Below are positions 6,533 through 53,393 of a stretch of 64,000 nucleotides of DNA, in pieces. The position numbers and the translations under genes are program-made. Source of the DNA: Omnitrophica WOR_2 bacterium GWF2_43_52 (GTDB taxonomy: Bacteria; Omnitrophota; Gorgyraeia; Gygaellales; UBA12090); the NCBI GenBank assembly GCA_001805445.1, contig MHGF01000022.1, positions 74,613 through 138,612 on the forward strand, in the 5' to 3' direction. Below the pieces are notes generated by a model. It was not told the DNA's origin. It did no database searches and worked only from the letters and a program-made list of their open reading frames with translations. How positions within the stretch are numbered: the first letter of the stretch is position 1; each line of letters starts with the position of its first letter.

Positions 6533-6552
6533 AGTTCGCTTCGCTCACTCAC

Positions 6553-6918: not shown

Positions 6919-6975
6919 AATAGTCGATAGCCTATAGTCGATTGTCCGCAGTAAGATCTATAGCTTATCGATTAT
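6919..6975. repeat. ATAGTCGATAG-type repeat element (aatagtcgatagcctatagtcgattg...ctatagcttatcgatta)
   Basis: Shares the ATAGTCGATAG/CTATAG motif with 25998-26032 and with an in-frame segment of mnmE at 45667-45696. Confidence 0.55.
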
Positions 6976-8516
6976 TAACTGTCGACCGCTTTCAGCTTTT
7001 CCTTTTGTATCTTCCCACTTGGGGTCTTGGGTAAGGTATCTCTGATTTCTACATTATGGGGAACCTTAAAATGCGCTAAATGCTCCCGGCAAAAAGAGCG
7101 GATATCTTCGGTGGTTGCCTCAACACCTTGCTTAAAGACCACAAACGCTTTGACGATTTCACCCCGCAGTTTATCCGGTATACCCACTACCGCCGCTTCT
7201 TGCACTGACGGGTGTTTTAAAAGCACGTTTTCCACTTCAAAAGAGTAAACAATCTCACCGGAAACTTTAATCATATCCTTTTTACGGCCTACTATATAAA
7301 GGAAACCTTCCTCATCAAATCTTCCTAAATCACCAGTGTGAAACCAGCCGTTTTTAATTACCTCTGAGGTAGTTTCTGGGTCCTTATAGTAGCCTTCCAT
7401 CACCACCCAGCCTTTAATAATAATCTCCCCTACCTCACCTTTCGGTAATTCCGTATCATCGTCAGCGGCTATTTTTACCTCAACCCATGGCGCTGGCTTT
7501 CCTATACTTTCAATTTTTTTTGAACCAAGAGGAATGACGGTGTTCGGCGGGCAGGTCTCAGTAAGCCCCCAGCCGTTTAAAAGATGCGCCTTAGGACAAT
7601 ACTGCTGGAATCGCCTCAAGGAATGAGGATCGCTCGGCGCCCCAAACACCACCACCCAGCGTAAGCTGGATAAATCAAAACTCTCAAACTCCTTTAAGTT
7701 TAAAATGGCATAATACATTGAAGGCACTAAATGAAAACAGGTGACTTTATATTTCTGGATATTCCTTAAGAATTCTAAAGGTTGAAAACGCTCCATCAAT
7801 ACAAGAGTAATTCCGTAGCAAATACAATTCTGGATATAAACAAGCCCGCCTGAATGGGACAAAGGAAGCGCGGAAAGTTTTACATCCTTATCCGTTAAAT
7901 CCACAAAATACTCCATAGCCTTTGGCGAACCGTCAAGATGCTTATAATTAAGCGAAATTCCTTTGGGCGAGCCGGTTGTGCCGGAAGTATACATAATAAG
8001 CGCGGGGTCTGTATCTTCTACTTTTATATCGGTAGGAAACGGCCTTGCAGAGGCTACCATATCCGTAAAAGAGCGAAAGCCGCTCTTCTGCGGCTCTAAA
8101 ACAATTACATGGGCTAAGCTGGAGGCTCGGTTTTTCAGGCTTTCAAGTGAAAGCCGCTCTTTTTCCTTAGCAATTAAAGCCTTGGCTTCACAATGGCTTA
8201 AACAGCTCGCCAGTTCATCCTCGGTAAGCATGTAATCCAGAGGAACAATGGTAGCGCCTATAGAAAATAGGGCCAAATAGCTATAGATATATTCAGGGCA
8301 ATTAGGTAAGTAAATGGCAACCTTGTCTGATTTCTTTATGCCTAAGCTAAGCAGACCATTGGCGAGCTTAAAGACATTATCATAGAGCTCTAAGAAGCTA
8401 ATCGGCTTGTCTCTTCCCGATAAATCGGGATCCCGACTCTTTTGTCGGGAAAAGATTATGGCCGGCTTGGAATGGAATTTCTTGGTAGTATCAATTAAGA
8501 CTTGGGCGACATTCAT
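6975..8516 (-). CDS. AMP-dependent synthetase/ligase (acyl-CoA or acyl-ACP ligase)
   Basis: 513 aa. Adenylation P-loop YTSGTTGSPKG, plus GWGLTE and a lysine near the C-terminus (PKTPSGKIQK). Confidence 0.85.
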   Translation of the reverse strand: MNVAQVLIDTTKKFHSKPAIIFSRQKSRDPDLSGRDKPISFLELYDNVFKLANGLLSLGIKKSDKVAIYLPNCPEYIYSYLALFSIGATIVPLDYMLTEDELASCLSHCEAKALIAKEKERLSLESLKNRASSLAHVIVLEPQKSGFRSFTDMVASARPFPTDIKVEDTDPALIMYTSGTTGSPKGISLNYKHLDGSPKAMEYFVDLTDKDVKLSALPLSHSGGLVYIQNCICYGITLVLMERFQPLEFLRNIQKYKVTCFHLVPSMYYAILNLKEFESFDLSSLRWVVVFGAPSDPHSLRRFQQYCPKAHLLNGWGLTETCPPNTVIPLGSKKIESIGKPAPWVEVKIAADDDTELPKGEVGEIIIKGWVVMEGYYKDPETTSEVIKNGWFHTGDLGRFDEEGFLYIVGRKKDMIKVSGEIVYSFEVENVLLKHPSVQEAAVVGIPDKLRGEIVKAFVVFKQGVEATTEDIRSFCREHLAHFKVPHNVEIRDTLPKTPSGKIQKEKLKAVDS

Positions 8517-9427: not shown

Positions 9428-12400
9428 TTATACTTTATCCGATTCCAGGGCAATAAGCAATCCCTTTAGGGAGGGTTCGGTGGCAGGCAATTTTTCATCC
9501 TCTTCCTCGCGCCGAAGGATATCGGCAAGCATAGCGCGAACCTGGTCTATTCTCTCTTCAGAGAGCGGACTGGCCACAGCTGCTGCCGTGTATTCGCCAA
9601 TGCGCTGGACAGACGGCCGGATCCCGGCGTTAAAGACAGCTTGAATTTGAGACCATTCTTTATCCAAATCCGACTTAGGGGTTATAGACAGCGGCCTAGA
9701 GACTAAAGACTGGAGACTTTGAATTTGCTGGGTTTGGATAGGTAGGGCGGCAAAATCGATGCCACCCTTGTCATCGCTGACTGATGAGGAGCTTGTTGAA
9801 TCCAAACTAATCTTATATACACCACCTTCATCAGAATAAATAATCACGGTTGATTCATTAATTACTTCTATCTTTTCTGGAATAATTGACAAACATGGCC
9901 AAACATTCAGGCTATTACTCGCAAAACGAATTGGCTTACCAACATAGGCAGAGGTCATAGGATCCCATAATTCTCCTTTGAGCTTTGTATTCGGCCTTAC
10001 TCCTTTTAATTCTTCTTTCTTCCAAAAAGTATTATTTTCGTCACTTCCACCGACTAATTCTAACGTGACTTTTGCATCCTCTTTAAATTTCTCGAAAACT
10101 TCTTCCTTAGATACGTTTCCTTTCTCTGGTTCCAACAAATAATTATATTGCTTACCAAAAAACAGCACGTTTCCTAAATGCTTAGCCACCTCGGCGAACC
10201 TGCCTAAAGAAGGCTTACAGGCACGTGCAGAATTAAAAAGATATTCTGCCCCTGCCACTGCTACTGCCTCTTTGGGTGTAGTTTTCCAATATTGCGTATA
10301 TCTTTTCAAGGCAACATTTGCATCTTGATATTTAGAATCGTTCTTCAATTCTTCATAACTATCTTCGCCCACGTAACACACCAGCCTTCCGCCATCTTCT
10401 CGATACACCCAATCTCCGTAATTAAAATCGCGAATCTCAGTATAATTCCCTTTTAACTCTCTTTTCAGCTCATCTAATGTCTTCAACTTGCCATTATGAA
10501 ACGCGCCGTAAAACCCAGCTTTGCGGGTAATCTCAATCCACGCATCAAAAGACACTATCGGATTGCTATTCTTATCGCTTGAAAGTGATATTTTATGCAT
10601 AATCTCATGCCAAAATGTTTTGGCCAAGTCTATGAAATTATTCTCATTCCGGACACCATTGATAAATATCGTATGGACTGTTTTTTGGCCAACCCACCCC
10701 CCAGCATTAACATCCAGCTCCGCAAAATCTATTTTTATGGGTATTTTTATCTTTCCCAGCAAATCTTTCGGAAACGATCCTAATATCTTTCTTACGTCTC
10801 CAAAACGTGATGGTGCCACATAAGAGAGAAATTCTATGTTTAATCCTTCCCTTATATCTCGCACTAACAAGAGATAACCCTCAAGGTCTTTTATGGTTTG
10901 CGAGTTATCAATTTTTCTCATACTGCCTAATTCAGACAATATCCTGCTTAACTTCTGAGAATCAATCCGACCGGACGTCTCAAATAGACCCTGTTCATTC
11001 TCTATATATAAATGCACCAGTTCTACCACATATTCATTAAATTCCGACCCTTTACTTTTAAGTATTTTCCCTAACAACTCTTTAGGGGACATCTTCTTTA
11101 TAGCCACTGCTTCCAAAAAATAAGTTTCCTTTATATGTTTAAGGAAAGACACATAATCTCTTAGACCAACCAACGCTACCAGCCTTTTCCTTTCCTTTCT
11201 TATTTCAGCTTCCGGCAATTCTGTATTTATCTGAACAATTACGTTATTTAACACATCCAGATTTATCTCATCGCTTTCCTTATTATCCTTCTGCTTAAGA
11301 TACTTAGCGATGTATTCTTTTATACCGTCATTCAGCCTTCCGGCACCTATATTCTTTTTTATAATCCATTTCACAAAATCTTCAAGAGATAACTCCCTTA
11401 ATTTTTCTGGTGAAGCTGCATATTTATCAAAATCGTGCTTTTCAAAACCTGCATTTCCCACCGCCGAGCTGGCGGAGGAACCATCTATAGGCAAATTAAT
11501 AATTTGTTTCCTTTCTACAGCTGAACTTACAGATAATAATTTACCTATTCCCCTATTATCTCTAACATTAGACAAATTAATCGCGCTTGTTTCATTAGGC
11601 ATAGTAAATGTTTCTTCTGTCATTACGTTAGTTAATGTAGCTGGCTTATAGTTATACTCAGCCATTACAAATTCTTCTCCGTCATGCCAATCTATAAAAA
11701 TCTTAGTCCCTTCATAACCCTCAGGCATATCACCAGTAAAACCAATCCAGAGATCTCTTTTTGTTTTTAGATTCTGGGCATAAAGAACATTCTCACCAGG
11801 GTCATATAGATATTTAAAATTCTCTTTATCCTTATCTTCACACACTTTCAGCTTGAAGGTGGCATGGGTTATAGGGTTAGTAACTTCTATTGTTCCATCG
11901 GCTCGCAATTCACTAAGTAGCCCCTGCCGCATTCTTAGTAAATGCTGCTCTCGCTCCTTCACTGTTTTTTCTTCTCCACCGGTGTCCTCAGAATAAAACG
12001 AGCAACCTCGAAAAATAGTGCGAAAAGGAGTTATATCTATGCCAGCCTCTATAAATTCTTTTTTCAACTCTGCTATAAACTGTGTGAGAAGAAAAGGAGA
12101 ATTTCTATACCTTGAAAAATATTCCTGCCGATGGTCTTTTCGAGCCGCGTCTGTAGAAGGATAGATAATGTCCCACAACAACTTCGTCTGAGGCTTAGTC
12201 GAATGATCGTTATCCTTAATTTCAAGGCTGTCATGAATTATTCTAAACAAAAATCTTTGTAATTCTGAAACCTTCAAGTCACTTGAAAGTAATCGGTCGC
12301 TATTAATGTCTTCTATCACTTTCTTAATATCACTCATTGTAATTGTGTTACCCCATTCCAGCTTTACGTCTGCGGAATCCTCTACCGCCGAGCTGGCGGG

Positions 12401-15400
12401 GGCAGGAGCACCTGTAGATTCATCTTGAAGCGGCACACCCCATAAATTAAGCACCTTTTCTATATCTCGAATATATTCTTCACCAATCTCTTTTTTAGGA
12501 TCGAGTTTAATCCGATCCTTTATTTTCTCTATTTGATCCCTCCAAGCCTTTATACGTGTTTCTAACTCGCCTATTTCAGAAGCAAATTTAAGTTCTTCTT
12601 CTAATATTCTCGGATGGGCATGTTGAAAAAAAAAGTTAAAGTCAGAATCAATAGCCCCTCTTTCTACAAATTTTTGCTCAAGTAATTCATGTAAAAATAC
12701 AGATTTTGTAGGAGAAATGCCTAATTCCTGACAAAACGCATGATAAGCCGCGGGAGAATAATATATGCCCTCCTTCTGGACAGACGGATGAAACATCCAT
12801 ACAATGGATGGTATGGATTCTGGGGCCATATATCTTGTAGCTTTTTCAATTTCATCCCATACTTTGCCTGCGCCACCCGCTAATTCCCTAACTCTTTTGA
12901 TCAATTCCGCAGATGCCCTATCCAACATAAACATCGTAATTCCTATTTTTACCTTAAAAACTCCAATTTCTTCTATAAATTTTTCAAGAGTCATTTTCCT
13001 AATTTTATCCTTGGAACCTATTTTGTTTTCAAGATATTCTGCGGTATCCTTCACCGCAGAATCTATTACATTGGAATCGGGTTTAGCCTTAGGCTGATTA
13101 TGAGCGCTGGCCATCTCCATTTGACTCACTACCTCTGCGATATTACGACTCTTTAAAGCACCCCAGATGTTTTTAGCGTCCAAATTATCTTTACTACCGT
13201 TTGCCAAAGTTACCAGAGACAGCTCCTTAGGCTCTGGATTCCGTCCAAAAAAGCTCATCAAAGAAGAAGAAGCTACTTTTTCTTTTTCACTTATTTCTTC
13301 CACCGCCGAGCTAGGCACATTATTATATGATTTTTCGCTATTGATACTATTTGTTCGATTTAAACCAACCCTTCTTACCATATCGTCTTCGGTAGGTAAC
13401 CTTTTTCCATGAACCCAAAGGGTAAGTCCTGGGTTCTTCTCTGTTATCTCCTTTAGTGCCGACTGATAATCCGGAACAAACATTTTGGCTGTCCAGCCTT
13501 CATAACCATATCCGCCAAAATAATCCAGATTAGTTACTTCTACTTTTTCTGAACTCTTTTTTACAAATATCAATTTTTTAGAATACTCGGCAAAAACTTT
13601 CTCTGCCTGATCCCTGAGAAATTCAGGGACTAAAATATAGTCTATATCTTCAAAACTGACTTCCTGAACACTCCAAGCTAAAGCACCACTTTTACCCGTA
13701 AGCAAGCCTATATCTTTCTTCTTAATAGTGTCAAATTGAGAGACAAAGAGAACAGAATGCATAACCCGCTCCTCCATCATTTCAGATAGAAGGCCATATC
13801 CATGAAGCAAACGTAAATCTTCCCCGTATCTTTCTGTAACAACTGGTAATACCGCATTGCCGTCGCGTCCATTATATAATGCGTCATAGGAAGTATTCAT
13901 AAATCCATTTCTTATTCCTTCTTTAGCCAATTCCTCTACATCTTCCAAAGATAATCCGGGGAGTCTATAGCTCTTATATATTTCCCCTGTTTGCTTAATG
14001 ATTACATTCCATGTCGTGCCATCATCTCCTTTCTCTAATGACAATGTAGGATTGATTATGACCCCATAAACTATAGGTGCTGGCGTTCGCGAGGATAGCG
14101 ACGTATCAACACGCAAACCTCCTCTTTTAATTTGCTCAAGTTGATAAACAATCTCGTCTCCGACCCGTTTCGAAATAAAAAATCCTAATTGCCTGCCTAA
14201 TGCCTTTGGAGATGACAACATACTCAAATCTACAGATAGAAGATAACTCAAAGATTGACCGCTGTGCCCGGTAACAGGATTGAATCTATCCATAATTATT
14301 CTATTTACCCTATATTCCCAATTATTAGCTGGAGATGTAAATTGAGAAACCGCCTTATCAATAAATATTGCCAGATTTTCTTTTCCTGCCCACTGAGCAT
14401 AATCTTTAAAAAGCTCTTCTAAATAGCTTAATCCTGCCACATCATTATTTTCTGTCCGCATAAATCTAACAACATCCTCTCCAGAGGTGCCAATACCAGC
14501 TGCCTTTCCTATGATTGTTGCTACACCATATTTGTTCAACGCTTCTGCAAATATTTTATAAGACTGCTCAATAATTGAAGATGAAGCTCTATCAGTTGCA
14601 AAGGACTCTATTAAAAATTTAGTTCTCGGAGGACTAATTGTCTTAGCAGGAATCTTAGAGATTGCGCTGCTAACTTGTTCCGTTCCAAACATCATCCCCC
14701 CGCTCATATACTTGCGGATACTCTGGCCCATAGGAGTATATATCGGCTCAGTGAGGTTGTATTCGCCATCTTGGAATGATTTCTGGTATTGCTGGAAGTA
14801 ATCTTGCTTGTCATACAGTTCTTTAGAAACCAAATTAGTCAAAGCCCCGGAATCTATGAGCTTGAAGTAATCATTGGCTTTTTCTGTCCTCTGTTCCCTG
14901 TTCTCTGTCATCTGCGAGCGAAAGCGAGCTTTAAACCACTGCGCCAAGATGAGCGAATAATACACCTGCCGAAGAGAAGCGTATCTCTTTGAGGTATTCA
15001 CCTGATAGGTAAGCTTAGGGATTACCAATTCTCTGATAAGCTGGGTAGAATATTCATTGAGCTCCTTTAGCCTTGGATCTTTGAAACTATAATTTATTAT
15101 CGTCCCTCGTCCTTCATCCTTCATCCCTCGTAAATAATCCTCCTCCAGCATCACTTTTAGGGTTGCTTTGTATATGTACGCATTATCAGGGGCTTCTCTG
15201 ATGATTATCTCATTGGGCACTATCCAGGGGCGGGTTAAGGTGGGTATGGTAATATTCTCCGTTCCAAATAATTCTTCTGCTTTCTTATAGAGTTTATCCC
15301 AGTAAACTTTTCCTTCAGGGTCTTGGGGTGAAGTAAAGTTTGCGGTGTCCTTCTTTAGCTGGACATCTGCTTCTAAGAATATCCTGCCGATATCAGTCAT

Positions 15401-15868
15401 TGCTACGTCATCATCTATGATGTTATCCGGTGAATCCGGCCTTAGGTTTACCCAGAATTTATCATTAGGCAGGCTTAAGCCGATAAAGAAGTATTTCAAT
15501 AGCTCTTTGGTAGCATTATTGAGCTCATTAGCTGGTGAGCTGGTTAGCTCATTAGCTAAATGGTTATCAAATTTAGTATCTCCTTTGTCTAACAATAGCT
15601 GAAAGTCATTGCTTTGGCTATCGTAGGAGATGTACCTTAGATGTAAGGGACGGAATTTGTCTTGGGGGATAACCGCATTACGGGCTTGGTTAAAGTAACC
15701 AGAAATATCCAGAGTCTGGGCTACTTGGGCAAAGCTGGTTTGCTCAAAGATAAGGCAGAAACAAAAGAAAAAATGGGCTATGCGCCCGCCACACTGCCTT
15801 GGCGGGCGTCCGCCTATGCTTTGTGGTGGACGTTGTGCGTTATGAGTCATGTCGAATACGATAGGCAA
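9428..15868 (-). CDS. giant multidomain protein A (2146 aa) of unknown function, sharing N- and C-terminal modules with the 26062-29616 paralog
   Basis: Single uninterrupted ORF. The first ~430 aa are ~85% identical to paralog B. The C-terminal ~100 aa (GGIDFAALPI...TEPSLKGLLIALESD) resemble the B C-terminus. An internal HExxH motif (FWHEIMHKISL) is present. The SSAVE linker motif recurs four times. The N-terminus has a long charged region before a hydrophobic stretch, IAHFFFCFCLIF. Confidence 0.8.
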   Translation of the reverse strand: MPIVFDMTHNAQRPPQSIGGRPPRQCGGRIAHFFFCFCLIFEQTSFAQVAQTLDISGYFNQARNAVIPQDKFRPLHLRYISYDSQSNDFQLLLDKGDTKFDNHLANELTSSPANELNNATKELLKYFFIGLSLPNDKFWVNLRPDSPDNIIDDDVAMTDIGRIFLEADVQLKKDTANFTSPQDPEGKVYWDKLYKKAEELFGTENITIPTLTRPWIVPNEIIIREAPDNAYIYKATLKVMLEEDYLRGMKDEGRGTIINYSFKDPRLKELNEYSTQLIRELVIPKLTYQVNTSKRYASLRQVYYSLILAQWFKARFRSQMTENREQRTEKANDYFKLIDSGALTNLVSKELYDKQDYFQQYQKSFQDGEYNLTEPIYTPMGQSIRKYMSGGMMFGTEQVSSAISKIPAKTISPPRTKFLIESFATDRASSSIIEQSYKIFAEALNKYGVATIIGKAAGIGTSGEDVVRFMRTENNDVAGLSYLEELFKDYAQWAGKENLAIFIDKAVSQFTSPANNWEYRVNRIIMDRFNPVTGHSGQSLSYLLSVDLSMLSSPKALGRQLGFFISKRVGDEIVYQLEQIKRGGLRVDTSLSSRTPAPIVYGVIINPTLSLEKGDDGTTWNVIIKQTGEIYKSYRLPGLSLEDVEELAKEGIRNGFMNTSYDALYNGRDGNAVLPVVTERYGEDLRLLHGYGLLSEMMEERVMHSVLFVSQFDTIKKKDIGLLTGKSGALAWSVQEVSFEDIDYILVPEFLRDQAEKVFAEYSKKLIFVKKSSEKVEVTNLDYFGGYGYEGWTAKMFVPDYQSALKEITEKNPGLTLWVHGKRLPTEDDMVRRVGLNRTNSINSEKSYNNVPSSAVEEISEKEKVASSSLMSFFGRNPEPKELSLVTLANGSKDNLDAKNIWGALKSRNIAEVVSQMEMASAHNQPKAKPDSNVIDSAVKDTAEYLENKIGSKDKIRKMTLEKFIEEIGVFKVKIGITMFMLDRASAELIKRVRELAGGAGKVWDEIEKATRYMAPESIPSIVWMFHPSVQKEGIYYSPAAYHAFCQELGISPTKSVFLHELLEQKFVERGAIDSDFNFFFQHAHPRILEEELKFASEIGELETRIKAWRDQIEKIKDRIKLDPKKEIGEEYIRDIEKVLNLWGVPLQDESTGAPAPASSAVEDSADVKLEWGNTITMSDIKKVIEDINSDRLLSSDLKVSELQRFLFRIIHDSLEIKDNDHSTKPQTKLLWDIIYPSTDAARKDHRQEYFSRYRNSPFLLTQFIAELKKEFIEAGIDITPFRTIFRGCSFYSEDTGGEEKTVKEREQHLLRMRQGLLSELRADGTIEVTNPITHATFKLKVCEDKDKENFKYLYDPGENVLYAQNLKTKRDLWIGFTGDMPEGYEGTKIFIDWHDGEEFVMAEYNYKPATLTNVMTEETFTMPNETSAINLSNVRDNRGIGKLLSVSSAVERKQIINLPIDGSSASSAVGNAGFEKHDFDKYAASPEKLRELSLEDFVKWIIKKNIGAGRLNDGIKEYIAKYLKQKDNKESDEINLDVLNNVIVQINTELPEAEIRKERKRLVALVGLRDYVSFLKHIKETYFLEAVAIKKMSPKELLGKILKSKGSEFNEYVVELVHLYIENEQGLFETSGRIDSQKLSRILSELGSMRKIDNSQTIKDLEGYLLLVRDIREGLNIEFLSYVAPSRFGDVRKILGSFPKDLLGKIKIPIKIDFAELDVNAGGWVGQKTVHTIFINGVRNENNFIDLAKTFWHEIMHKISLSSDKNSNPIVSFDAWIEITRKAGFYGAFHNGKLKTLDELKRELKGNYTEIRDFNYGDWVYREDGGRLVCYVGEDSYEELKNDSKYQDANVALKRYTQYWKTTPKEAVAVAGAEYLFNSARACKPSLGRFAEVAKHLGNVLFFGKQYNYLLEPEKGNVSKEEVFEKFKEDAKVTLELVGGSDENNTFWKKEELKGVRPNTKLKGELWDPMTSAYVGKPIRFASNSLNVWPCLSIIPEKIEVINESTVIIYSDEGGVYKISLDSTSSSSVSDDKGGIDFAALPIQTQQIQSLQSLVSRPLSITPKSDLDKEWSQIQAVFNAGIRPSVQRIGEYTAAAVASPLSEERIDQVRAMLADILRREEEDEKLPATEPSLKGLLIALESDKV

Positions 15869-15877
15869 TGCCAGGCA

Positions 15878-26061: not shown

Positions 26062-29000
26062 TCAGTTATGAGGGTTCACTACTATTCGGCTTAAGGCAAG
26101 CTGTACTTCTTGGGCAGGATTATCTGACTCAAGCGCGATAAGGATTTGTTTTAAGGCGGGCTCGGTGGGAATAAACTTTTGCTCCTGCGCGCGTAAAATT
26201 TCGGCGATATGGGTAATGACAACTTCTATCTGCTCACTGCTTACCGCTGACGATTGGCTTGCCGTATAGGCCATATCGCGTATGCGCGCGGTTGCGGGGA
26301 TAAAATCATTCTTGAGCATCACTTCAATCTGCCGGCACTCCTCGTCAAAATTAATATTCAGGCTTATGGGCGCAGAACCAAACATAGAAAGTTGATTCCC
26401 TAGAGCTGGCTGCGCGGTTATAGGCAATGCGCGTAAGTCTATACCTCCCACATCATGAACTTTTTCATTAAGGGGCGAGGAATTCGCTATTGCGGCGATA
26501 CCGCCATGATCTGCTAAATATGTTAAAAGCCCTTTATAATTTGTAAACTTATTTTCTTTAACAATTCTCGCAATATTTTCTATGGGCAAAGCTTCTAAAA
26601 TGCTAAAGAGTGTTTGCCTCGTGCCGCCAATTTCCTTTAACAAAGGAATAATCGTATCCGGATTCTTCGCGCGGGCAAACATATCCAGGAAATTCTCAGG
26701 GATATTATGAATATTTTGTTTTGGTTTTTTTAAATAATTAGACACTATTTCTCTGATTGTTTTGCTCTCCACTTCACTCATTTCATCTACAATTCTCTTT
26801 ATCTCTTCCCTTGATTTATCATCAACGGTCATGTCAGGGAATTCCAACATCAAGCGTACACACCTAAATATAGTATCTAACTTTAATAAACGATTTGTTC
26901 CATGGCGCGACACGGCAGGAATAAGGCTAAGGCGTTTTTGTATAATATCTTCGGCATAATCTCCTCCCGCGCTACTTGTAACTACCCAACCGCTCGTATC
27001 CTTATGAACGATAAGCCTGTTAAGGGAAAAATCACGCAAAATATCTACTTTGGCATATAGTTCATCTTCGTAAAGGAATAATTCTTCAGAATCAGGGTCC
27101 TTACCAAGGTTAAGGACATGCAAAGGGGTATCTTTAAATTTTATCCTTGTCATATCCTCTATAAAATAAATAATCTCACTTACCGATCGCACTTTGCTCT
27201 TATCATAACCCCTAATAACAATATCAATATCTGCCGCTCTCAAAGACGGCTTTATCCCTGTAACCATTTTCCGCGCTATCCCTCCCGCAAACCCAAAGTA
27301 TACTCCTTTTTTTTCTAACTCGTTTGTAATATATAAGATATCCTCGTCCACGGCTATATTAATTCCTCGGTTTTCTTTTCTTTCTGAATCTTCCAGCCGT
27401 GCAAGTTGAAATGATTTTCCATCTACCTCCACCACCGAGCTGGCAGCTGATATTGAAACACATCCTCCTACATAACTTTGCTCTGGCCGTGTATGAAAGC
27501 CATATTTTTTTAATTGAGCTATATCGCCATCTGGCAAATGCCCTATGAATTCCTTTGACTGATAACCTCCTAAAATAATCTTGTCAATTCTAATGTTACG
27601 ATCTTTAATCATGTTTAATATAAGGCCAACGCTGGTCAAGTTAGTTACCGGCCCATAATCACCAGGCCAAGTTCCGATGTTGCTTATTAAGACAATGCTA
27701 TCTTTTATCTCAGGGATTTTTGGCATAAGTGTATCTTTATTCGTCAAATCTCCGGCAATACACCAAAAATGCACACCTTCCCTAAACTTGTTAGCCTCAA
27801 AATGTTGCCTTGCTTTGTTCAAAGAGGCTTCATCATTATCTATAAGTATGGCCTGGGAAGCCCCCAGCTTAAGCGCCGTCAAAGCAAGCAGTCCGTCTCC
27901 GGATCCGGAATCAATAACACACTTTCCTGCGATATTGCTATTCAGCATTAAAAGTATAGTCGCAGAAGTGAAAAGCTTCATCCTGCCGCCTTTTTCCTCC
28001 GATTCACCAATCGTGGAGTCAGATAAATCCGATACAACAATAGCTCTTTCTTTCAAGGCAGCGCGTAACTCCAAATCTTTCTCTAAATCCTCATACACTT
28101 CCTTGTCTATAAAAAACAAACCTCCGATCTTAACCAAATCATATCCTTGATGATTATCTTTGACTCTTACCAATAAAGTTGCCTGCTCTATTCCATTGTA
28201 AGTTACACTATCATCAATTTCCCTTTGAGCATGAATGTAATACTTTCTCTCCCCGCCAACCCCTTTAATTGCTTTCAATTCTTTCTCTATGCGCTGCCAA
28301 AGCTGTTTTTCTAAATTCGTAAGATACTTTATCGGGTAAGCATATGCGTCATTCATTATTTCTGGCATATCTTTTTTTGCTGGTATCATTGTAGTCACAG
28401 CCGAACTACTCATAAATCCTTCTATTCCTCCGCTCAGATACCTACGAATATTTTGGCCATAAGGGGTATAGACTGGTTCTGTAATATTATATTCGCCATC
28501 TTGGAATGATTTCTGGTATTGTTTAAAGTATTCTTCTTTATCATAAGGCTCTTTTGAAGTGAGGTTAGTCAAGTCTCTTGAATCAATAAGCTTACTATAG
28601 GGGTTATCCGGTTTACCGGTAAGCGAGTTAACCGGTTTACTGGCTAACCCGTTCACCGGCACACTAAATTTATTCTTAAACCACTGCGCCAATATAAGCG
28701 AGTAATACACTTGCCTAAGAGAAGCATATCTCTTTGAGGTATTCACCTGATAGGTGAGCTTAGGGATTATCAATTCTCTGATAAGCTGGGTTGAGTATTC
28801 ATTGAGCTCCTTTAGCCTGGGGTCTTTGAAATTGTATTGCTGCTGGCTGACAGCTGAAAGCTGAAAGCTTTTCAGATAGTCTTCTTCAAGCATCACTTTT
28901 AGCGTTGCCTTGTAGATATAAGCATTATCTGGGGATTCCCTGATGATGATTTCATTGGGCACGATCCAAGGACGGGTTAAGGTAGGTATAGTAATATTCT

Positions 29001-29616
29001 CTGAACCAAATAATTCCCCCGCCTTCTTATAGAGCTTATCCCAATATTGTTTGCCTTCTGGGGTCTGGGGTGAAGTAAAGTTCGCGGTATCCTTCTTTAG
29101 CTGGACATCCGCCTCTAAGAATATCCTGCCAATATCAGTCATTGCCAAGTCATCATCTATGATGTTATTTGGCGAATCCGGCCTTAGGTTGACCCAGAAT
29201 TTATCATTAGGCAGGCTTAAGCCTATGAAGAAATACCTGAGTAAATTTTGAGTCTCACCTTCAAGGGCTTTTTCTTGTTTCTCTGGTGACGTGGTGACCT
29301 GGTGACGGGGTGACTCTTTTAAGAAATCCCCTTTATCTACAAGAAGCTTAAAATCATTGCTTTGGCTATCGTAGGAGATGTATCTTAAGTGCAGTGGACG
29401 AAATTTATCTTGGGGAATAACCGCGTTACGGGCTTGGTTAAAGTAACTGGAGATATCCAGCGTCCGGGCTACTTGGGCAAAGACTGGCTGTTCAAAGATA
29501 AGGCAAAAACAAAGGAAAAAATGGGCTATGCGCCCGCCACACTGCTTTGGCGGGCGTCTGCCTATGCTTTGTGGCGGACGTTGTGCGTTATGAGTCATAT
29601 TGAATATGATAGGCAA
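26062..29616 (-). CDS. giant multidomain protein B (1184 aa): conserved N-module, class I SAM-methyltransferase-like motif, Pol-beta-type nucleotidyltransferase-like motif and conserved C-module
   Basis: The N-terminal ~430 aa are ~85% identical to giant A. The central segment VIDSGSGDGLLALTALKLGASQAILIDND is a GxGxG SAM-binding-like motif. GFAGGIARKMV...AADIDIVI fits the hG[GS]x9-13Dh[DE]h nucleotidyltransferase signature. The C-terminus GGIDLRALPI...TEPALKQILIALESD matches A. Confidence 0.75.
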   Translation of the reverse strand: MPIIFNMTHNAQRPPQSIGRRPPKQCGGRIAHFFLCFCLIFEQPVFAQVARTLDISSYFNQARNAVIPQDKFRPLHLRYISYDSQSNDFKLLVDKGDFLKESPRHQVTTSPEKQEKALEGETQNLLRYFFIGLSLPNDKFWVNLRPDSPNNIIDDDLAMTDIGRIFLEADVQLKKDTANFTSPQTPEGKQYWDKLYKKAGELFGSENITIPTLTRPWIVPNEIIIRESPDNAYIYKATLKVMLEEDYLKSFQLSAVSQQQYNFKDPRLKELNEYSTQLIRELIIPKLTYQVNTSKRYASLRQVYYSLILAQWFKNKFSVPVNGLASKPVNSLTGKPDNPYSKLIDSRDLTNLTSKEPYDKEEYFKQYQKSFQDGEYNITEPVYTPYGQNIRRYLSGGIEGFMSSSAVTTMIPAKKDMPEIMNDAYAYPIKYLTNLEKQLWQRIEKELKAIKGVGGERKYYIHAQREIDDSVTYNGIEQATLLVRVKDNHQGYDLVKIGGLFFIDKEVYEDLEKDLELRAALKERAIVVSDLSDSTIGESEEKGGRMKLFTSATILLMLNSNIAGKCVIDSGSGDGLLALTALKLGASQAILIDNDEASLNKARQHFEANKFREGVHFWCIAGDLTNKDTLMPKIPEIKDSIVLISNIGTWPGDYGPVTNLTSVGLILNMIKDRNIRIDKIILGGYQSKEFIGHLPDGDIAQLKKYGFHTRPEQSYVGGCVSISAASSVVEVDGKSFQLARLEDSERKENRGINIAVDEDILYITNELEKKGVYFGFAGGIARKMVTGIKPSLRAADIDIVIRGYDKSKVRSVSEIIYFIEDMTRIKFKDTPLHVLNLGKDPDSEELFLYEDELYAKVDILRDFSLNRLIVHKDTSGWVVTSSAGGDYAEDIIQKRLSLIPAVSRHGTNRLLKLDTIFRCVRLMLEFPDMTVDDKSREEIKRIVDEMSEVESKTIREIVSNYLKKPKQNIHNIPENFLDMFARAKNPDTIIPLLKEIGGTRQTLFSILEALPIENIARIVKENKFTNYKGLLTYLADHGGIAAIANSSPLNEKVHDVGGIDLRALPITAQPALGNQLSMFGSAPISLNINFDEECRQIEVMLKNDFIPATARIRDMAYTASQSSAVSSEQIEVVITHIAEILRAQEQKFIPTEPALKQILIALESDNPAQEVQLALSRIVVNPHN

Positions 29617-29760
29617 TGCCAGGCATAGTCAAGTGAAAATGACACTTGTTTATGCCTGGCATTGTGCGGGGCTATTAGCTACCTAAAATATACTACATTT
29701 TAAGTCCAAAACAAGGCTAAAACAGGGGGTTCGGGAAAGCGCTTTCTAATGAGGCCACAA
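29617..29760. promoter_or_regulatory. duplicated leader and promoter region of giant gene B, near-identical to 15869-16010 upstream of giant gene A; contains the AATGCCAGGCATA hairpin
   Basis: Nucleotide-level near-identity between the two regions, seen by direct comparison. The hairpin copy at 29625-29680 lies inside it. Confidence 0.6.
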
Positions 29761-29924: not shown

Positions 29925-30005
29925 GGGAAATACACGCGAATGGACGCGAATAAAGGGGAAGAATATTTGCGCGAATTTACGCGAATTGACCAAGAAAACA
30001 GATGC
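29925..30005. repeat. CGCGAAT/ACGCGAAT variant of the MITE-like half-site array
   Basis: The sequence cacgcgaatggacgcgaataaagg...gcgcgaatttacgcgaattgacc. The 29881-30123 '+' ORF overlapping it is probably not coding. Confidence 0.45.
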
Positions 30006-44478: not shown

Positions 44479-45933
44479 TTACTTACCGACGCAAAACTCA
44501 CCAAATATTTTATCTAAAATATCTTCTTCAATGATTTCGCCAGTTATATGCGCCAAATGATTACTACAGATTTTTAAATCTTCGGCGATAAACTCAATAG
44601 ATGCCTCTCTGGCTAAAGAATCTTTTGCCTGTTGTAAGGCTTTACGCGCCTCTTTAAGCGCCTGGATATGGCGCGCGTTAGTAATAATGATTTCCTCCGA
44701 AGCCTCTAGGTTACCCTGCCACACCGTTTGAAAAATACTCTCTTCAAGCGCCATAAGCCCTTTTTGTTTTCGGGTTGAAATTTTCACGCTACGAGAAAAA
44801 GAGCGCTGTATCTGGCCTTCTTCTATTCGTATCTTAAGATCGCACTTATTCAATACCGCGATCACGCTCTTGTGGCTGGCTTTTTTGATTAAGGCTCTAT
44901 CTTCTTGCGTAAGCCTGCGGCTTGCGTCAAAAACCAAAAGTACCAGATTCGCCTTTTCAAAATAGCTCTGGGTGCGTTTAAGCGCTTCCTTTTCTATGAA
45001 ATCCCGCGGCTCTATTATACCTGCAGTATCGGCAATCTTCAAGGGAATTCCCTGTAAATCCAGAATTTCCTCAATAGCATCCCGGGTGGTTCCGGCAACA
45101 GGGCTTACTATTGCCCGCTCCTCCCGCAATAAGGCATTCAGAAGCGACGACTTTCCTACGTTTGCCTTGCCCACAATGACAACGCGTATTCCTTCGCGTA
45201 AAATTTTCCCGTGAGAAGCTGAATGCAGCAATGCCTGTATCAAGCCGGATACTACGTCTATCGACTGGGCAATCTTTTCTCTCTGGACAGGCGTTATTTC
45301 CTCTTCAGAAAAATCGATATTTGCCTCAAGCAGCGCAAGGACTTCCAAAAGCTTTGCTTTTAGCTTATTGATTTCCTGCGACAATGCTCCTTTAAGCTGC
45401 CGTATGCCGCTCTCTAAGCCGCGGGTAGTCTTGGCATTAATAACATCCAAAACAGCCTCTGCCTTACTTAAATCAATCCTGCCGTTTAAAAATGCCCTTT
45501 TGGTAAATTCTCCGGGTAATGCCAAACGCGCGCCAGCTGAAAGCACTACGTCTAAAATTTCCCGTAGCACTACAATCCCGTTATGGCAGCTGATTTCTAC
45601 AATATCTTCCTTGGTGTAACTTCGCGGAGCGCGCATCACGGTCAAAAGCACTTCGTCAATTACATTGGTCGATAGTCTATGGTCAATAGCCGATGGTTTT
45701 TTCTGATGGCGTGGCGACATGCCTGCCCCGACTGAAACGTCGGGGATGCTCTGGTGACTTTTCACAATCCATCCATAATGCACCGTATAGGTTTTGTACC
45801 CTGAGGGTTTGCCTCCATCCTTAGAAACAAATATTTTATCCGCGATTGGCAAAACATCCTGGCCGCTTAGACGGATTATTCCTATGCCGCCCTGGCCTAT
45901 GGGTGTAGAAATTGCGGCAATGGTATCATTCAT
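44479..45933 (-). CDS. mnmE: tRNA modification GTPase MnmE, with a ~40-aa N-domain insertion
   Basis: C-terminal CVGK. G-domain VVIVGKANVGKSSLLNAL and DTAG. Likely start MNDTIAAISTP at 45933 (track start 45972). The insertion SKDGG...KKPSAIDHRLSTNVID relative to typical MnmE contains the ATAGTCGATAG-family repeat. Confidence 0.85.
   Translation of the reverse strand: MNDTIAAISTPIGQGGIGIIRLSGQDVLPIADKIFVSKDGGKPSGYKTYTVHYGWIVKSHQSIPDVSVGAGMSPRHQKKPSAIDHRLSTNVIDEVLLTVMRAPRSYTKEDIVEISCHNGIVVLREILDVVLSAGARLALPGEFTKRAFLNGRIDLSKAEAVLDVINAKTTRGLESGIRQLKGALSQEINKLKAKLLEVLALLEANIDFSEEEITPVQREKIAQSIDVVSGLIQALLHSASHGKILREGIRVVIVGKANVGKSSLLNALLREERAIVSPVAGTTRDAIEEILDLQGIPLKIADTAGIIEPRDFIEKEALKRTQSYFEKANLVLLVFDASRRLTQEDRALIKKASHKSVIAVLNKCDLKIRIEEGQIQRSFSRSVKISTRKQKGLMALEESIFQTVWQGNLEASEEIIITNARHIQALKEARKALQQAKDSLAREASIEFIAEDLKICSNHLAHITGEIIEEDILDKIFGEFCVGK
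45667..45696. repeat. ATAGTCGATAG-family repeat copy located in-frame inside the mnmE coding sequence
   Basis: ggtcgatagtctatggtcaatagccgatgg closely matches the intergenic copy at 25998-26032 and encodes ...PSAIDHRLSTN... in MnmE. Confidence 0.55.
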
Positions 45934-46033
45934 AGTTTTAAACATATTCTCTTTGTTAATAGCGGTTACCAACGGTTAAAAGCAGTTAATAACAGTTACT
46001 GTTGTAACCGATTGTAACCAATAGTAACTGCTC

Positions 46034-47431
46034 TTAACTGTTTGTAACTGCCTTTAATATTATCTTTCTGGCTTCTCCCACTACAAATAATGAACCGGTA
46101 ATCAAAATTAAGTCTTTGGAGCCGGCGAGGTATTTGGCAAGGACAATTGCTTTCTTTACATCAGACGTTACTTCTAACGGTTTGCCTATATATTTTTTAA
46201 TGCTTTCAGGCTCTTCTGCCCTAGGATTCCAGGCTTTAGTCAGAATGACCTTATCCGCGATATCCTCAAGCATCGCACAGACACCCTCTATATCTTTATC
46301 AGAAGAAATCCCTAAAACTAAAATCAGCTTTTGATACGTATAATATTTCTTTAATGCTTCCTTGAGCGTAAACGCTGAAGCCGTGTTTTGCGCTCCATCA
46401 AGAATTATCGTCGGCTTTCTCCCCGCTATTTCAAGCCTGCCCGGCCAAGAGGCGCTCATTAAACCTCTTTTTATTACGTGGGGACTCAGGCGCTTATCCT
46501 CAAGCGCCTCTGCCATACCGATAGCCAAAGAAGCATTATCCAATTGATGTTCACCAAGCAGTTTTATTTTCAGGCCCGTATACTTTCTCTTCAGCCCTCT
46601 GACCTCAAAGCTCTGCCACTCACCCTTGATTCTTCCTAAACGCCAGACAATATCTTTACCTACTTCATATAACCTTGCCTTTTCTTTAAGGCAACGTTTT
46701 TTTATAACTGCCCGTGCCTCTTTCTTCTGCGCCGCACTTATGACAATGAGGGAATTGCCGTATCTATCGTCCTTCGTCCCTCGTCCCTCGTCCCTCTTAA
46801 TAATCCCCGCCTTCTCTTTCGCTATTTTTGCGAGGCTCTTGCCTAAAAGATCCATATGGTCATAGCTTATCGGGGTAATCCCGCAGACTAAAGGGTCTAC
46901 CACATTAGTAGCGTCAAGCCTCCCGCCTAACCCTGTTTCTAAAACCGCGTAATCCACTCGTTGTTCCTTAAAATACATAAACGCAAGCGCCGTATACACC
47001 TCAAAAAAAGTCAAATCCCCATATTTACTTACGCGCTGATATTTCTCAATTAACGGCTTTACTCTTTCTACAAGATGTGTTATCTCTTTCTTGCTTATCA
47101 TCCCCTCAAACTCGTCCTTCGTCTTTCGTCTTTCGTCCTTCGTCTTTCGTAATACGCGAATTCTCTCCCTTACATCCATTAAATGCGGCGAGGTATATAA
47201 TCCCACGCTATAGCCGGCTTCTCTTAAAATAGAGGCAATAAAAATACATACTGAGCCTTTCCCCTTAGTGCCGGCAATATGCAGGCATTGTAAGGCCTCT
47301 TGCGGATTACCGATAAGTTCCAAAAAATCCTGAATTCTTTCTAACTTAAAGGATTTTCTATAAGAATACGTATTTTTATTCTCATAGTTAATGAACGAAT
47401 TAAGATAGGCGAGTGCCTCTGTATAAGTCAT
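46034..47431 (-). CDS. folC: bifunctional folylpolyglutamate synthase / dihydrofolate synthase
   Basis: 465 aa. P-loop GTKGKGS, SPHL and Mur-ligase central and C-terminal domains. Two low-complexity insertions (RKTKDERRKTKDE and DEGRGTKDDRYG) are encoded by the GACGAAGGACGA-type microsatellite. Confidence 0.85.
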   Translation of the reverse strand: MTYTEALAYLNSFINYENKNTYSYRKSFKLERIQDFLELIGNPQEALQCLHIAGTKGKGSVCIFIASILREAGYSVGLYTSPHLMDVRERIRVLRKTKDERRKTKDEFEGMISKKEITHLVERVKPLIEKYQRVSKYGDLTFFEVYTALAFMYFKEQRVDYAVLETGLGGRLDATNVVDPLVCGITPISYDHMDLLGKSLAKIAKEKAGIIKRDEGRGTKDDRYGNSLIVISAAQKKEARAVIKKRCLKEKARLYEVGKDIVWRLGRIKGEWQSFEVRGLKRKYTGLKIKLLGEHQLDNASLAIGMAEALEDKRLSPHVIKRGLMSASWPGRLEIAGRKPTIILDGAQNTASAFTLKEALKKYYTYQKLILVLGISSDKDIEGVCAMLEDIADKVILTKAWNPRAEEPESIKKYIGKPLEVTSDVKKAIVLAKYLAGSKDLILITGSLFVVGEARKIILKAVTNS

Positions 47432-47495: not shown

Positions 47496-49064
47496 TTAAT
47501 GTTTGAAGTGCCTTAGCCCGGTAAATACCATAGAGATCTTATGCTGATCAGCGGTTTTGATAATCTGTTCGTCAGCAATTGAACCGCCGGGCTGGATTAT
47601 CGCGGCAATCCGGTATTTTGCCGCTAACTGTACCGCGTCTTCTTTGGGAAAAAACGCGTCTGAGGCAAGGACTGATCCTGCGGTATGAATATCTGCTTTT
47701 CTGGTTGCGATAAATACTGAATCTACCCGAGACATCTGCCCCGCGCCGATGCCAACGGTTTTTTTCCCTTTGGCTAAAATAATCGCGTTAGACTTGGTAT
47801 GCTTGGCCACTTTCCAGGCAAAAATCAGGGATTCCATTTCTTTGGCAGTGGGTTTTTGCTTGGTCACCACTTTGAGATTTTTTTCATCCAAGGTAAGCGC
47901 ATCTTCATCTTGCACCAAGAGGCCGCCTGAAATCCGCTTGAAATCCAGCTGTAGTAAGTTTTCCCGCAATGAAGGCAACTCTAAAAGCCGCACATTTTTC
48001 TTTTCCTTTAATACGCTCAGCGCCTCTAAACTGAACCTGGGAGAAACAACACATTCCAGAAAACCACTTTTTGCAATTAATTTTGATAAGGATAAATCTA
48101 TTTCCCTGTTTACAGCGACAATCCCGCCGAAAGCTGAAAGTTTATCGCACGCCCATGCCTGACGGTACGCCTTAAGCACATCGTCGTTTTCTGCCACACC
48201 GCAGGGATTATTATGTTTGATAAAAACTGCCGCCGGTAAACTAAATTCCTTGACGATATTAACCGCGGCATTTAAATCTAAAATATTGTTAAAAGAAAGC
48301 TCCTTGCCCCAAAGCTGTTTCATTGCCGCGAGGCCCTTTGTTTCATTTCCATCGCGGTAAAACGCGGCTTTCTGGTGCGGATTTTCGCCGTAACGTAAAT
48401 CCTGGATCTTGACAAAATTGAGGCCTACACAATGGGGAAACCCGTGTGTAGTGCTATCTTTTTCTAAAATATGCGCCTTTAGGTAACGATGTATAGCCGC
48501 GTCATAATGGCTGGTTTCCTTAAACACCTCTATACCTAATTCTTGAAGCGTTTTTTCAGAAAGGCTACCCTTGTTTTCTTTTAATTCGGTTACAATTGAG
48601 GAATAACGGCTCGTAGTACAGACGACGGCAACAGACCGGTGATTCTTGGCCGCTGAACGCAGCATACTTGGGCCGCCGATATCAATATTTTCAATTACTT
48701 CCTCTATTGAAACACCCGGCTTCTGGGTTGTTTTTTCAAAAGGATACAAATTTACCACCACCATATCAATAAGCCCGATCTTATGCTCTTTCAAGCTTTC
48801 CATATGCTTAGGGTTATCCCGAAGCGCAAGCAAACCTCCATGAATCTTTGGATGCAGCGTCTTTACTCTTCCGTCGAGCATTTCGGGAAATCCTGTGTAA
48901 TCAGAGACCTCTATCACCGGTATTTTCGCCTCCCGCAATGCCTTGGCGGTTCCGCCGGTAGATAAAATCTCAACCCCTAAAGTATGCAACTCTAACGCAA
49001 AATCCACAATTCCGGCTTTATCCGAAACACTAATCAACGCGCGTTTAATTTTTACCATTTTCAC
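47496..49064 (-). CDS. purH: bifunctional AICAR formyltransferase / IMP cyclohydrolase
   Basis: 522 aa. The MGS-like N-domain (RALISVSDKAG) and AICARFT C-domain are colinear with PurH. GTG start at 49064, or ATG two codons downstream. Confidence 0.9.
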   Translation of the reverse strand: MKMVKIKRALISVSDKAGIVDFALELHTLGVEILSTGGTAKALREAKIPVIEVSDYTGFPEMLDGRVKTLHPKIHGGLLALRDNPKHMESLKEHKIGLIDMVVVNLYPFEKTTQKPGVSIEEVIENIDIGGPSMLRSAAKNHRSVAVVCTTSRYSSIVTELKENKGSLSEKTLQELGIEVFKETSHYDAAIHRYLKAHILEKDSTTHGFPHCVGLNFVKIQDLRYGENPHQKAAFYRDGNETKGLAAMKQLWGKELSFNNILDLNAAVNIVKEFSLPAAVFIKHNNPCGVAENDDVLKAYRQAWACDKLSAFGGIVAVNREIDLSLSKLIAKSGFLECVVSPRFSLEALSVLKEKKNVRLLELPSLRENLLQLDFKRISGGLLVQDEDALTLDEKNLKVVTKQKPTAKEMESLIFAWKVAKHTKSNAIILAKGKKTVGIGAGQMSRVDSVFIATRKADIHTAGSVLASDAFFPKEDAVQLAAKYRIAAIIQPGGSIADEQIIKTADQHKISMVFTGLRHFKH

Positions 49065-49084: not shown

Positions 49085-49285
49085 ACGCAAGCTCAACAAT
49101 TCTTTTAGAGCGAGCTTAAGGAGCGCAGGAGCTGTTTATGAGGCCGCAGCGAAAAGCAGGGGGACACGGAAACTGACCGAGCCCGCCGAAGGCGGGGCGA
49201 GGGAATTTCCGAGGGGGCTCCGCCCGCTTTGAGCAAGGCCGAATGCTCCGAGCACCGCGCGAGCGAAAAATAATTGTTGAGCTTT
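49085..49285. repeat. ~200-bp GC-rich element bounded by 13-bp inverted termini (aagctcaacaatt ... aattgttgagctt) in the purH leader; MITE-like or structured RNA
   Basis: Terminal inverted repeats read directly. The interior contains several GC-rich stem-loops, for example gagcccgccgaaggcggggcgag. Confidence 0.45.
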
Positions 49286-53101: not shown

Positions 53102-53393
53102 CTGGTATTTAAGTTTTTCAGCTACAAGTGTATTATTCAGTGTACACCTCCTTGTATAATATATGTAATTAACTATGTTACATGCGGGGATTAGGTGATT
53201 AGGGGATCGGGATTTGAGGATTGGGATATCAGGATATTGGGAACAAAATCCCGGTCTTTCCCCTAATTCCCCAGTCTCCTAATCTCCTCCCGCCCACGGC
53301 GGGATCCCGCTTCATCCAAGACTATAGCGGGAAAACCCTAATTTCCTAATACCCTGGTGTCCCTGCCTGCGGCAGGCAGGCGCACCCCCCCTT

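Follow-up and report, generated by a model that had tools for sequence, protein, structure and literature searches.

Tandem heptamer arrays in intergenic DNA and, in frame, within conserved genes of Omnitrophota

Contig MHGF01000022.1 of Omnitrophica WOR_2 bacterium GWF2_43_52 carries, in the 64,000 nt analyzed here (the window), short tandem arrays of 7-nt words that lie between genes and also, read in frame, within mnmE, folC and two giant paralogous genes, A and B. An earlier note on this DNA had listed a 30-bp element, seen downstream of nuoN and inside mnmE, and a separate microsatellite in folC and giant A. All of the repeat sequences and encoded peptides were confirmed at the positions given there, but the "30-bp element" and the "microsatellite" are one kind of sequence, tandem arrays of a 7-nt word with ~4-5.6 units, and neither is unitary or has a 12-nt repeat. 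Each module repeats a 7-nt (sometimes 8-nt) word about four times in tandem, ~30-35 nt altogether, and belongs to a dispersed family. Often two inverted arms flank an A-rich spacer to give a hairpin of ~60-75 nt, and some modules are split by nested GC-rich hairpins. Among known repeats they come closest to the bacterial heptanucleotide repeats, found here in an unusual setting rather than as a new system. They differ from these in being common inside conserved genes, in belonging to many word families and in the re-use of their sites.

Period-7 families between and within genes of the window

Arrays were detected with TRF plus a period scan of our own. At a score of at least 12 the window contained five period-7 arrays, whereas simulated sequence contained none, and every other period gave two or fewer. 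Two families, ATAGTCN and GGAYGAR, occur three times each within the 64 kb (z denotes predicted folding relative to shuffled sequence):

25999-26031, plus strand: ATAGTCN array of 4.6 units (ATAGTCG ATAGTCA ATAGTCT ATAGCCG ATAGC), its first base directly following the nuoN stop codon
6920-6974, no strand assigned: inverted pair ATAGTCN / CTATNGA, adjoining the stop codon of the minus-strand gene 6975..8516 and making up part of it (dG -15.9, z -2.4)
45667-45696, minus strand: right array of mnmE (CCATCGG CTATTGA CCATAGA CTATCGA CC), encoding PSAIDHRLST
15100-15131, minus strand: giant A array (GGATGAA GGATGAA GGACGAG GGACGAT), encoding MKDEGRGT
46767-46796, minus strand: folC site-2 array (GGACGAG x3, GGACGAA, GGACGAT), encoding DEGRGTKDD
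47112-47150, minus strand: folC site-1 array (GACGAAR x5.6), encoding RKTKDERRKTKDE

Searches of the window with the words themselves gave six matches to ATAGTCGATAG at one mismatch or fewer (0.77 expected) and 11 overlapping matches to GACGAAGGACGA at two or fewer (2.2 expected, maximum 6), the latter confined to the last three loci listed above. GGGGCAGGC was weakly enriched (24 matches, 13.4 expected) and is uninformative alone. The best non-self match in the window to the array downstream of nuoN is the mnmE copy, which agrees at 26 of 32 positions; the best matches in 100 simulated 64-kb sequences averaged 19.8 and never exceeded 22. The earlier proposal that the in-gene segments belong to the same DNA repeat families as the intergenic copies and are read in frame is supported. 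The nuoN and mnmE copies also have in common the fourth-unit variant ATAGCCG, and those of folC site 2 and giant A have equal length and equal phase and both end in GGACGAT.

The minus-strand gene order around the conserved genes is purH (47496..49064), folC (46034..47431), mnmE (44479..45972) and then folE. The MnmE and FolC proteins of the window are identical to proteins in GWF2_43_52 / GWC2_44_8, and the close relatives of this MnmE are all from Omnitrophota. For comparison we used ~893 kb of Omnitrophota DNA from loci around mnmE, and an enlarged set of ~1 Mb, in which loci are labeled L and MnmE proteins P. Independent assemblies agree on the array sequences and hence the arrays are no artefact.

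Outside of genes the arrays keep close to stop codons. Four single or paired arrays in intergenic DNA lie at or over a stop codon, within 0-8 nt: the nuoN-downstream array and the 6920-6974 pair given above, together with two further inverted pairs:

3505-3570, no strand assigned: inverted heptamer pair CGTGTAC / ACGGTAA, just past the stop codon of the minus-strand gene 3572..4831 (dG -40.1, z -6.7)
45975-46048, no strand assigned: inverted period-10 pair at the folC-mnmE junction, one arm of which encodes the last folC residues plus the stop codon (z -4.4)

The in-gene arrays of the window are single arms having no excess folding (z -1.5 to +1.5, the two extremes being the single folC arrays), and the in-gene inverted pairs of some orthologs fold well (z -3.7 in L004 and -4.05 in L017). 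The ATAGTCG orientation holds TAG stops, and mnmE contains only the CTATCGA orientation, which is stop-free. As a 7-nt period puts each unit in a different frame, a word can persist within a gene only if none of its three frames holds a stop. S, K, R, Q, P and T abound in the array-encoded peptides, which are hydrophilic, their Kyte-Doolittle (KD) value being -1.14 versus +0.24 for the reverse-strand reading. The same orientation and stop-codon logic has been described for the TAACTGA repeats of Beggiatoaceae (PMC4679880).

Other short repeats were seen in the window. Short arrays of CACGAATT / AATTCGTG, with periods of 10 to 12, are intergenic, with copies around the nuo operon as well as upstream of giant B:

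6550-6567, 6624-6641, 17546-17563, 22965-22982, 23034-23067 and 29934-29987: CACGAATT / AATTCGTG arrays

The same word forms in-frame arrays in mnmE of L017, L019 and L022. G-rich 7/8-nt arrays at 53186-53235 (GGGGATTA; GGATCGGGATATCA) are similar to two quadruplex-forming repeats of PMC4692102, GGGGAYT of Nostoc and GGGAATC of Xanthomonas.

Inserts in MnmE, FolC and the giant paralogs

The MnmE loop that runs from ...HYGW to DEVLLTV... has 37 aa in the window versus 8 aa in the shortest orthologs, and thus the insert is ~29 aa rather than the ~40 aa of the earlier note; the ATAGTCN-type array accounts for no more than its final 10 aa. That the segment is absent from typical MnmE held up, residues 60-84 having no counterpart in 3GEH and 1XZP, where there is a short turn. 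On the coding strand the order in the loop is AAAAGTCACCAG, a 33-nt hairpin, TCGCCACGCCATCAG, AAAAAA and the right array. The composite insert is ~87-99 nt (composite fold z -0.9) and its parts are separable, those beyond the right array being as follows:

45697-45702, minus strand: A6 spacer (KK) separating the left array from the right one
45703-45717, minus strand: left-array remnant part 2, TCGCCAC GCCATCAG
45718-45750, minus strand: nested GC-rich 33-nt hairpin AGCATCCCCGACGTTTCAGTCGGGGCAGGCATG, in frame, which splits the left array
45751-45759, minus strand: left-array remnant part 1, AGTCACCAG

The nested hairpin has a predicted 7-bp stem, CCCCGAC/GTCGGGG, and when it is taken out the left array reads AGTCACC AGTCGCC ACGCCAT CAG. 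This left part is a second, decayed heptamer array, L010 having an intact AGTCCAC x4 at the same place. The word of the left array, GTCACCAG, is present as a perfect x4 array at the same site in P0004 and also as an array in giant B (29284-29314), and the word of the right array forms orthologous four-unit arrays in P0008, P0014 and P0018. The A-rich spacer between two mnmE arrays is likewise found in L004, L010, L017, L019 and L022. Predicted read-through peptides include RKTKDERRKTKDEFEGMISK and PSAIDHR. Over 61 genomes the MnmE loop is most often 8 aa long, and lengths cluster again at 31-32 aa; the DNA of this second cluster is typically an array, an A-rich spacer and an array that is approximately the reverse complement of the first (L004, L017, L019, L022 and L062).

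MnmE has a second hypervariable site in the helical domain after ...FPEEEI... (alignment columns 237-274), which is empty in the window (~45230-45260). Its inserts, seen in P0005, P0009, P0010, P0014, P0017, P0018 and P0023, are of 15-35 aa and have repeat-like peptides (KPEGDACLPARQGA..., YRKPHHRPLAYRKPNH...).

An alignment of 28 Omnitrophota FolC proteins has at least five hypervariable sites, sites 1 and 2 among them. Both of the repeat-encoded FolC inserts described earlier coincide with gaps relative to Thermotoga maritima FolC (1O5Z), of 14 residues at site 1 and 13 at site 2. In the folC of L083 a GC hairpin similar to the 33-nt hairpin of mnmE is nested in a GGACGAN array.

The giant genes (A, 9428..15868; B, 26062..29616) encode proteins whose first ~420 residues are ~75% identical and whose last ~135 are 39% identical, the middles being unrelated. 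Their DNA is ~90% identical over the first 1.2 kb except for three patches, and given this level of DNA identity the N-terminal module was duplicated or converted recently. All three patches contain arrays in both paralogs, and these belong to different families. In addition to the giant A array at 15100-15131, they are:

28846-28869, minus strand: giant B array homologous to that at 15100-15131, of another family (AGCTTTC/AGCTGTC), encoding FQLSAVSQ
15530-15557, minus strand: giant A, 8-mer array of patch i
29284-29314, minus strand: giant B, 8-mer array of patch i (GTCACCNN x4)
14883-14908, minus strand: giant A, heptamer array ACAGRGA of patch iii
28602-28659, minus strand: giant B, 8-mer palindromic arrays of patch iii (GGTTAACC type)

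Paralog B had been said to have unrelated sequence at the site of MKDEGRGT. The sequence does differ, but what stands there is a heptamer array of another family, the AGCTTTC/AGCTGTC word of which also forms arrays in folC of L009, L014 and L081. Given the different array families at shared patches and sites, the sites are re-used and their content is replaced.

Just upstream of each giant paralog start is a near-perfect palindrome, CAATGCCAGGCATA ... TATGCCTGGCATTG, with 22-nt arms and a 7-nt loop (15866-15916 and 29614-29664); a version with 15-nt arms is at 20695-20731. The palindrome looks like a shared operator or regulatory site. Array starts often come directly after AAAAG or AAGAG (GTGAAAAG|TCACC, ATTAAGAG|GGACG, CTGAAAAG|CTTTC), as at 45759/45762, 46797-46803 and 28870-28876 of the window and at folC site 2 of L081, L082 and L205. 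This could be a target preference or merely the lysine codons of surface turns.

Turnover of the arrays among Omnitrophota

The ~893 kb of Omnitrophota DNA contained 43 period-7 and eight period-8 arrays, with at most five for each of the other periods from 4 to 12. Many Omnitrophota genomes carry arrays in folC, mnmE and purH, and in-gene arrays are a phylum-wide habit of Omnitrophota MnmE, FolC and PurH. In the ~1 Mb set 78 of the 96 arrays are inside long open frames, and as such frames make up 91% of the DNA, coding sequence is ~2.3-fold depleted in a sample that is biased to mnmE-folC. Identical canonical units were found in 31 array pairs (3.3 expected, maximum 13 in 500 trials). Some of these pairs lie within one genome: in L002, folC and mnmE each carry AAAAGTC, and in L009 two sites of folC carry TCAGCTG. 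Fourteen perfect arrays are 30-35 nt long and none is 28-29 nt. The perfect arrays have 53% G+C versus 27% in their flanks, a difference in the same direction in 22 of 26 cases (p = 3e-5).

Among MnmE orthologs with 92-96% identity outside the loop, the loop itself holds different arrays or lacks them altogether. P0004 and P0022 are 96% identical outside of unrelated loops, one with a perfect (GTCACCAG)x4 and the other with a decayed (AAAAGTC)x5. P0013 lacks an insert, its identity outside the loop being 89-94% to P0015, P0008 and P0018 and 88% to P0014; P0015 retains a remnant, and P0008, P0014 and P0018 have four C[CT]AT[CAT][GA][AG] units between flanks that are ~90% identical in DNA. In folC of three genomes of the P0013 clade, site 1 has three different fillings and site 2 has a 7-mer array in one genome and 8-mer arrays in two. 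Since arrays are swapped or lost among close orthologs as well as between the giant paralogs, the inserts are dynamic DNA and not ancient peptide features. The earlier note had held that conserved ancient segments lacking similarity to the intergenic repeats would speak against its proposal; when that comparison was run, such segments were not found.

The note had also asked for population variation in repeat copy number. None was found in seven nearly clonal same-species contigs, drawn from independent samples and 4.7-21.5 kb long (99.7-100% identical), in which no heptamer or octamer array has an indel; such a nearly clonal population has limited power to reveal copy-number variation. The seven contigs differ by a single substitution in the mnmE array, and their sole indel is in a GC palindrome at ~53385, near the end of the L207 contig. 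The inserts are invariant in nine MnmE and thirteen FolC database copies. Given that unit number does not change among the seven contigs, the arrays are not phase-variable. Frameshifts in folC and purH of L205 were considered as array-driven and rejected as sequencing errors, the contig having ~4x coverage and 1-nt indels scattered throughout.

Alongside the arrays there are small hairpins that are truly mobile. A 43-nt hairpin element is found in purH of L205 and in folC of two other loci (site 1 in L206, site 4 in L081), and is present or absent between L205 and L206; the window does not contain it (up to three mismatches allowed). CCTGCC...GGCAGG and CCGCCGAAGGCGG are further small hairpin families.

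In the window hairpin CCGCCGAAGGCGG is at 49183-49230, between purH and a YchF-like gene, and members of its family encode in-frame peptides of the 'SAEGGSA' type within the FolC and MnmE of L008, L010, L014 and L082. An intergenic GC palindrome, CCCTGCCTGC/GGCAGGCAGGC, is at ~53360-53385; its family is in frame in the L001 MnmE loop and probably in that of P0002, P0005 and P0010 (peptides PACPAGRH and PCLAGRQA), and has further members in the L011 folC gene and between genes of L081. Outside of the phylum, in a control Firmicute (Alkaliphilus peptidifermentans, L073), a heptamer array of >100 nt (TGAGAGT / TAAGAAT, 11429-11548) is just downstream of mnmE and is far longer than any Omnitrophota array.

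Relatives, origin and meaning of the arrays

To our knowledge, tandem heptamer repeats of bacteria have been known since 1990 and have no accepted origin or function. The canonical words of the cyanobacterial short tandemly repeated repetitive (STRR) sequences are CCCCAGT, TTGGTCA and CAACAGT. The words found here are others (ATAGTCN, GGAYGAR, CAGCTGT, GTCACCA and more), although single units such as ATGGTCA and ACAGTTA are one mismatch from STRR words. Heptamer repeats are a recognized and unexplained class that includes STRR of Calothrix and Nostoc, GGGAATC of Xanthomonas, GGGGAYT of Nostoc and TAACTGA of Beggiatoaceae, and the known examples prefer about four units, occasionally form inverted pairs, cluster at stop codons and are depleted in coding DNA (PMC4692102, PMC4679880). 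The Omnitrophota arrays share with STRR-like repeats the tandem 7-nt units (at least three), the dispersal of the same word, the preference for about four units, the hairpin-forming inverted pairs and the intergenic copies at or over stop codons, with stops in all frames of one strand and the other strand readable; the orientation parallel extends to the peptides, LSVISYQ in Beggiatoa and LSTIDYR here. They differ in that they are not predominantly intergenic (78 of the 96 arrays of our biased sample are in genes), in that they occupy internal turns of essential enzymes, in having many word families with no dominant word, in the re-use of sites and in a four-unit preference that holds for words incapable of forming a G-quadruplex. 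One full-text search with loose matching, a weak negative, found no paper on in-gene heptamer arrays of Omnitrophota.

The earlier note had likened the inserts to Rickettsia palindromic elements (RPEs), which Ogata et al. reportedly described in 2000. RPEs are unitary palindromes of ~100-150 bp in Rickettsia-specific families. The likeness stands insofar as both are dispersed, selfish-looking repeats, intergenic and also in frame in conserved open reading frames, that colonize tolerant loops and are translated there. It fails in that the present elements are tandem heptamers, 30-39 nt as arrays or ~60-75 nt as pairs, with in-gene copies that are non-palindromic and lack a hairpin excess, in another host phylum, and a relationship in sequence is not expected. 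Being too short, built of tandem heptamers and without palindromy, they do not belong to the RPE family. Elhai et al. (2008, Genome Res 18:1484) are said to have found small dispersed repeats of 21-27 nt nested in tandem heptamers of Nostoc punctiforme. The shared traits are a hairpin inside a heptamer array (the 33-nt hairpin of mnmE and that of L083 folC) and polymorphism between close relatives (the 43-nt element of L205 and L206), whereas the hairpins here are 33-43 nt, of other sequence, in frame in housekeeping genes and in another phylum. REP/REPIN-RAYT systems also have short repeats, multiple families and hairpin-forming inverted doublets such as those at 3505-3570, 6920-6974 and 45975-46048, but REPs are imperfect palindromes of 20-40 nt that are extragenic by definition, whereas these are direct tandem arrays (PMC3116915). 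Only the nested 33-nt element is a hairpin, and tblastn found no Y1 transposase in the window.

The reading we favor, to which we give about an even chance, is insertion of modules from a shared pool of words followed by selective filtering. Ready-made blocks drawn from a limited shared vocabulary would land preferentially at A/T-rich sites or on existing modules, and selection would then filter them, as the pattern of the modules indicates. To survive within a gene a module would have to keep the frame, present a stop-free coding strand, encode a hydrophilic peptide and fall in a turn that tolerates extra residues; the stop-containing orientation would survive only at a gene's extreme 3' end, there providing the stop codon or adjoining it. 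The later fate of a module would be decay by point mutation, frame-keeping loss of three units (21 nt) or overwriting by another family. The inserted peptides would be passengers, of which no function is expected. By analogy with REP elements, a Y1/HUH transposase is only a candidate for the spreader of the modules. Two Y1/HUH-like genes (L205 6135-6590 and L206 5837-6784, from loci closely related to each other) adjoin rpmA. Among the Y1/HUH-like genes of the related loci, one is fused to a DnaA_C-like domain; such genes are possible mobilizers of the hairpin elements.

Several observations weigh against module insertion, and some of these also speak for a rival reading in which the arrays arose in place by polymerase slippage, perhaps with a preference for 7 nt or for certain words, selection then keeping the harmless in-frame arrays with no movement between sites. 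Among the compared sequences no insertion event was caught with clean edges, nor did any show a target-site duplication, and tblastn detected no transposase gene in the window; Y1_Tnp (PF01797) genes are present in seven related loci (L205, L206, L009, L018, L023, L065 and L074), with no link to arrays demonstrated. At folC site 2, L205 and L206 differ by a 21-nt indel, four units versus one, and P0013 and P0018 also show a 21-nt difference, so local expansion and contraction also take place. A scan for ATAGTCNx3.6 gave, among the matches listed, >119 metagenome contigs with G+C from 0.32 to 0.69; the word is therefore not phylum-specific, and some words are perhaps intrinsically array-prone in many unrelated bacteria. 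As only three-unit steps keep the frame within genes, the four-unit mode could in part reflect the frame rule. The related loci were all sampled around mnmE-folC and many of their arrays are orthologous and non-independent. Lastly, surface exposure of the MnmE and FolC sites is deduced from alignment gaps alone, the AlphaFold2 model of MnmE (29-sequence alignment; mean pLDDT 59, N-terminal domain <50) being unusable for placing the loop. Slippage can further claim the tandem structure itself and the heptamer excess known in many bacteria, which has been attributed to slippage (PMC4692102). What it accommodates poorly is the identical words at unlinked loci (31 pairs versus 3.3), the bimodal lengths of perfect arrays, which skip 28-29 nt instead of decaying monotonically, the G+C-rich arrays in A/T-rich flanks and the near-identical genes that hold different families, or different periods (7 versus 8), at one site. 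The jump from one to four units in an essential gene would also be hard to reach, and the seven population contigs have no copy-number polymorphism. We regard slippage as a possible but doubtful origin.

Function in cis is a less probable explanation, and one that we consider quite unlikely. The arrays would be hairpins that end or stabilize transcripts, or binding platforms for a reader of 7-nt words, with the in-gene copies being functional or spill-over. The intergenic pairs do fold far beyond shuffled sequences (3500-3575, dG -40, z -6.7; 45970-46052, z -4.4), they sit 0-8 nt from stop codons and the word vocabulary is common across the phylum; a positional bias and a four-unit preference have been reported for the Xanthomonas and Nostoc repeats (PMC4692102), and a regulator-binding role was proposed for Beggiatoa TAACTGA (PMC4679880). 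Yet the in-gene single arms of the window lack excess structure, arrays are lost or replaced in close relatives with no sign of constraint, a Rfam scan of the whole window gave zero families at the gathering threshold, and in-gene positions track the tolerance of the protein rather than a logic of gene expression. Selection for repetitive peptides, with the DNA repeats as a by-product of adaptive lineage-specific loops, would fit the hydrophilic, low-complexity, linker-like peptides and the repeated use of the same two or three MnmE and FolC sites. It is already contradicted by period and turnover, and we give it almost no credence: a peptide repeat calls for a DNA period that is a multiple of 3, whereas the period is 7 or 8 and each unit is read in another frame, identical words form arrays in non-coding DNA, and the loops are unrelated or absent in proteins that are 92-96% identical elsewhere. 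The unit length, not being a multiple of 3, also recalls the phase-variable heptanucleotide repeats of Haemophilus, and gain or loss of one 7-nt unit would shift the frame. That the arrays are contingency loci of this type is nonetheless very improbable, as none has an indel in the seven contigs and the database copies of MnmE and FolC are invariant, the genes concerned are housekeeping genes, and as hypermutable tracts the arrays, with their four or five imperfect units, would be short.

Module insertion can also be put in a stronger form, in which a dedicated process, using a small set of shared words, writes ready-made blocks of ~30 nt into A/T-rich sites and on top of older blocks, and the same process lies behind the cyanobacterial STRR and the Xanthomonas and Beggiatoaceae heptamers. 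We think this unlikely. If true, it would be the smallest class of mobile or templated DNA, and Omnitrophota would be where block-writing is most active and can be caught, reaching even essential genes.

By themselves the arrays reveal no new machinery; if modules are inserted as blocks, there would be a mobilizing activity to find. The four-unit preference of words that are not G-rich argues that the G-quadruplex explanation given for the Xanthomonas and Nostoc repeats is not general. The inserts cause misalignment in phylogenomic marker sets of Omnitrophota, and they are a natural map of the turns that tolerate 10-30 extra residues in MnmE, FolC, PurH and the giant Omnitrophota proteins. Because conserved genes give exact orthologous coordinates, array dynamics are directly readable in them, and this setting records heptamer dynamics unusually well: gain, loss, three-unit contraction and replacement of one family by another can all be read.

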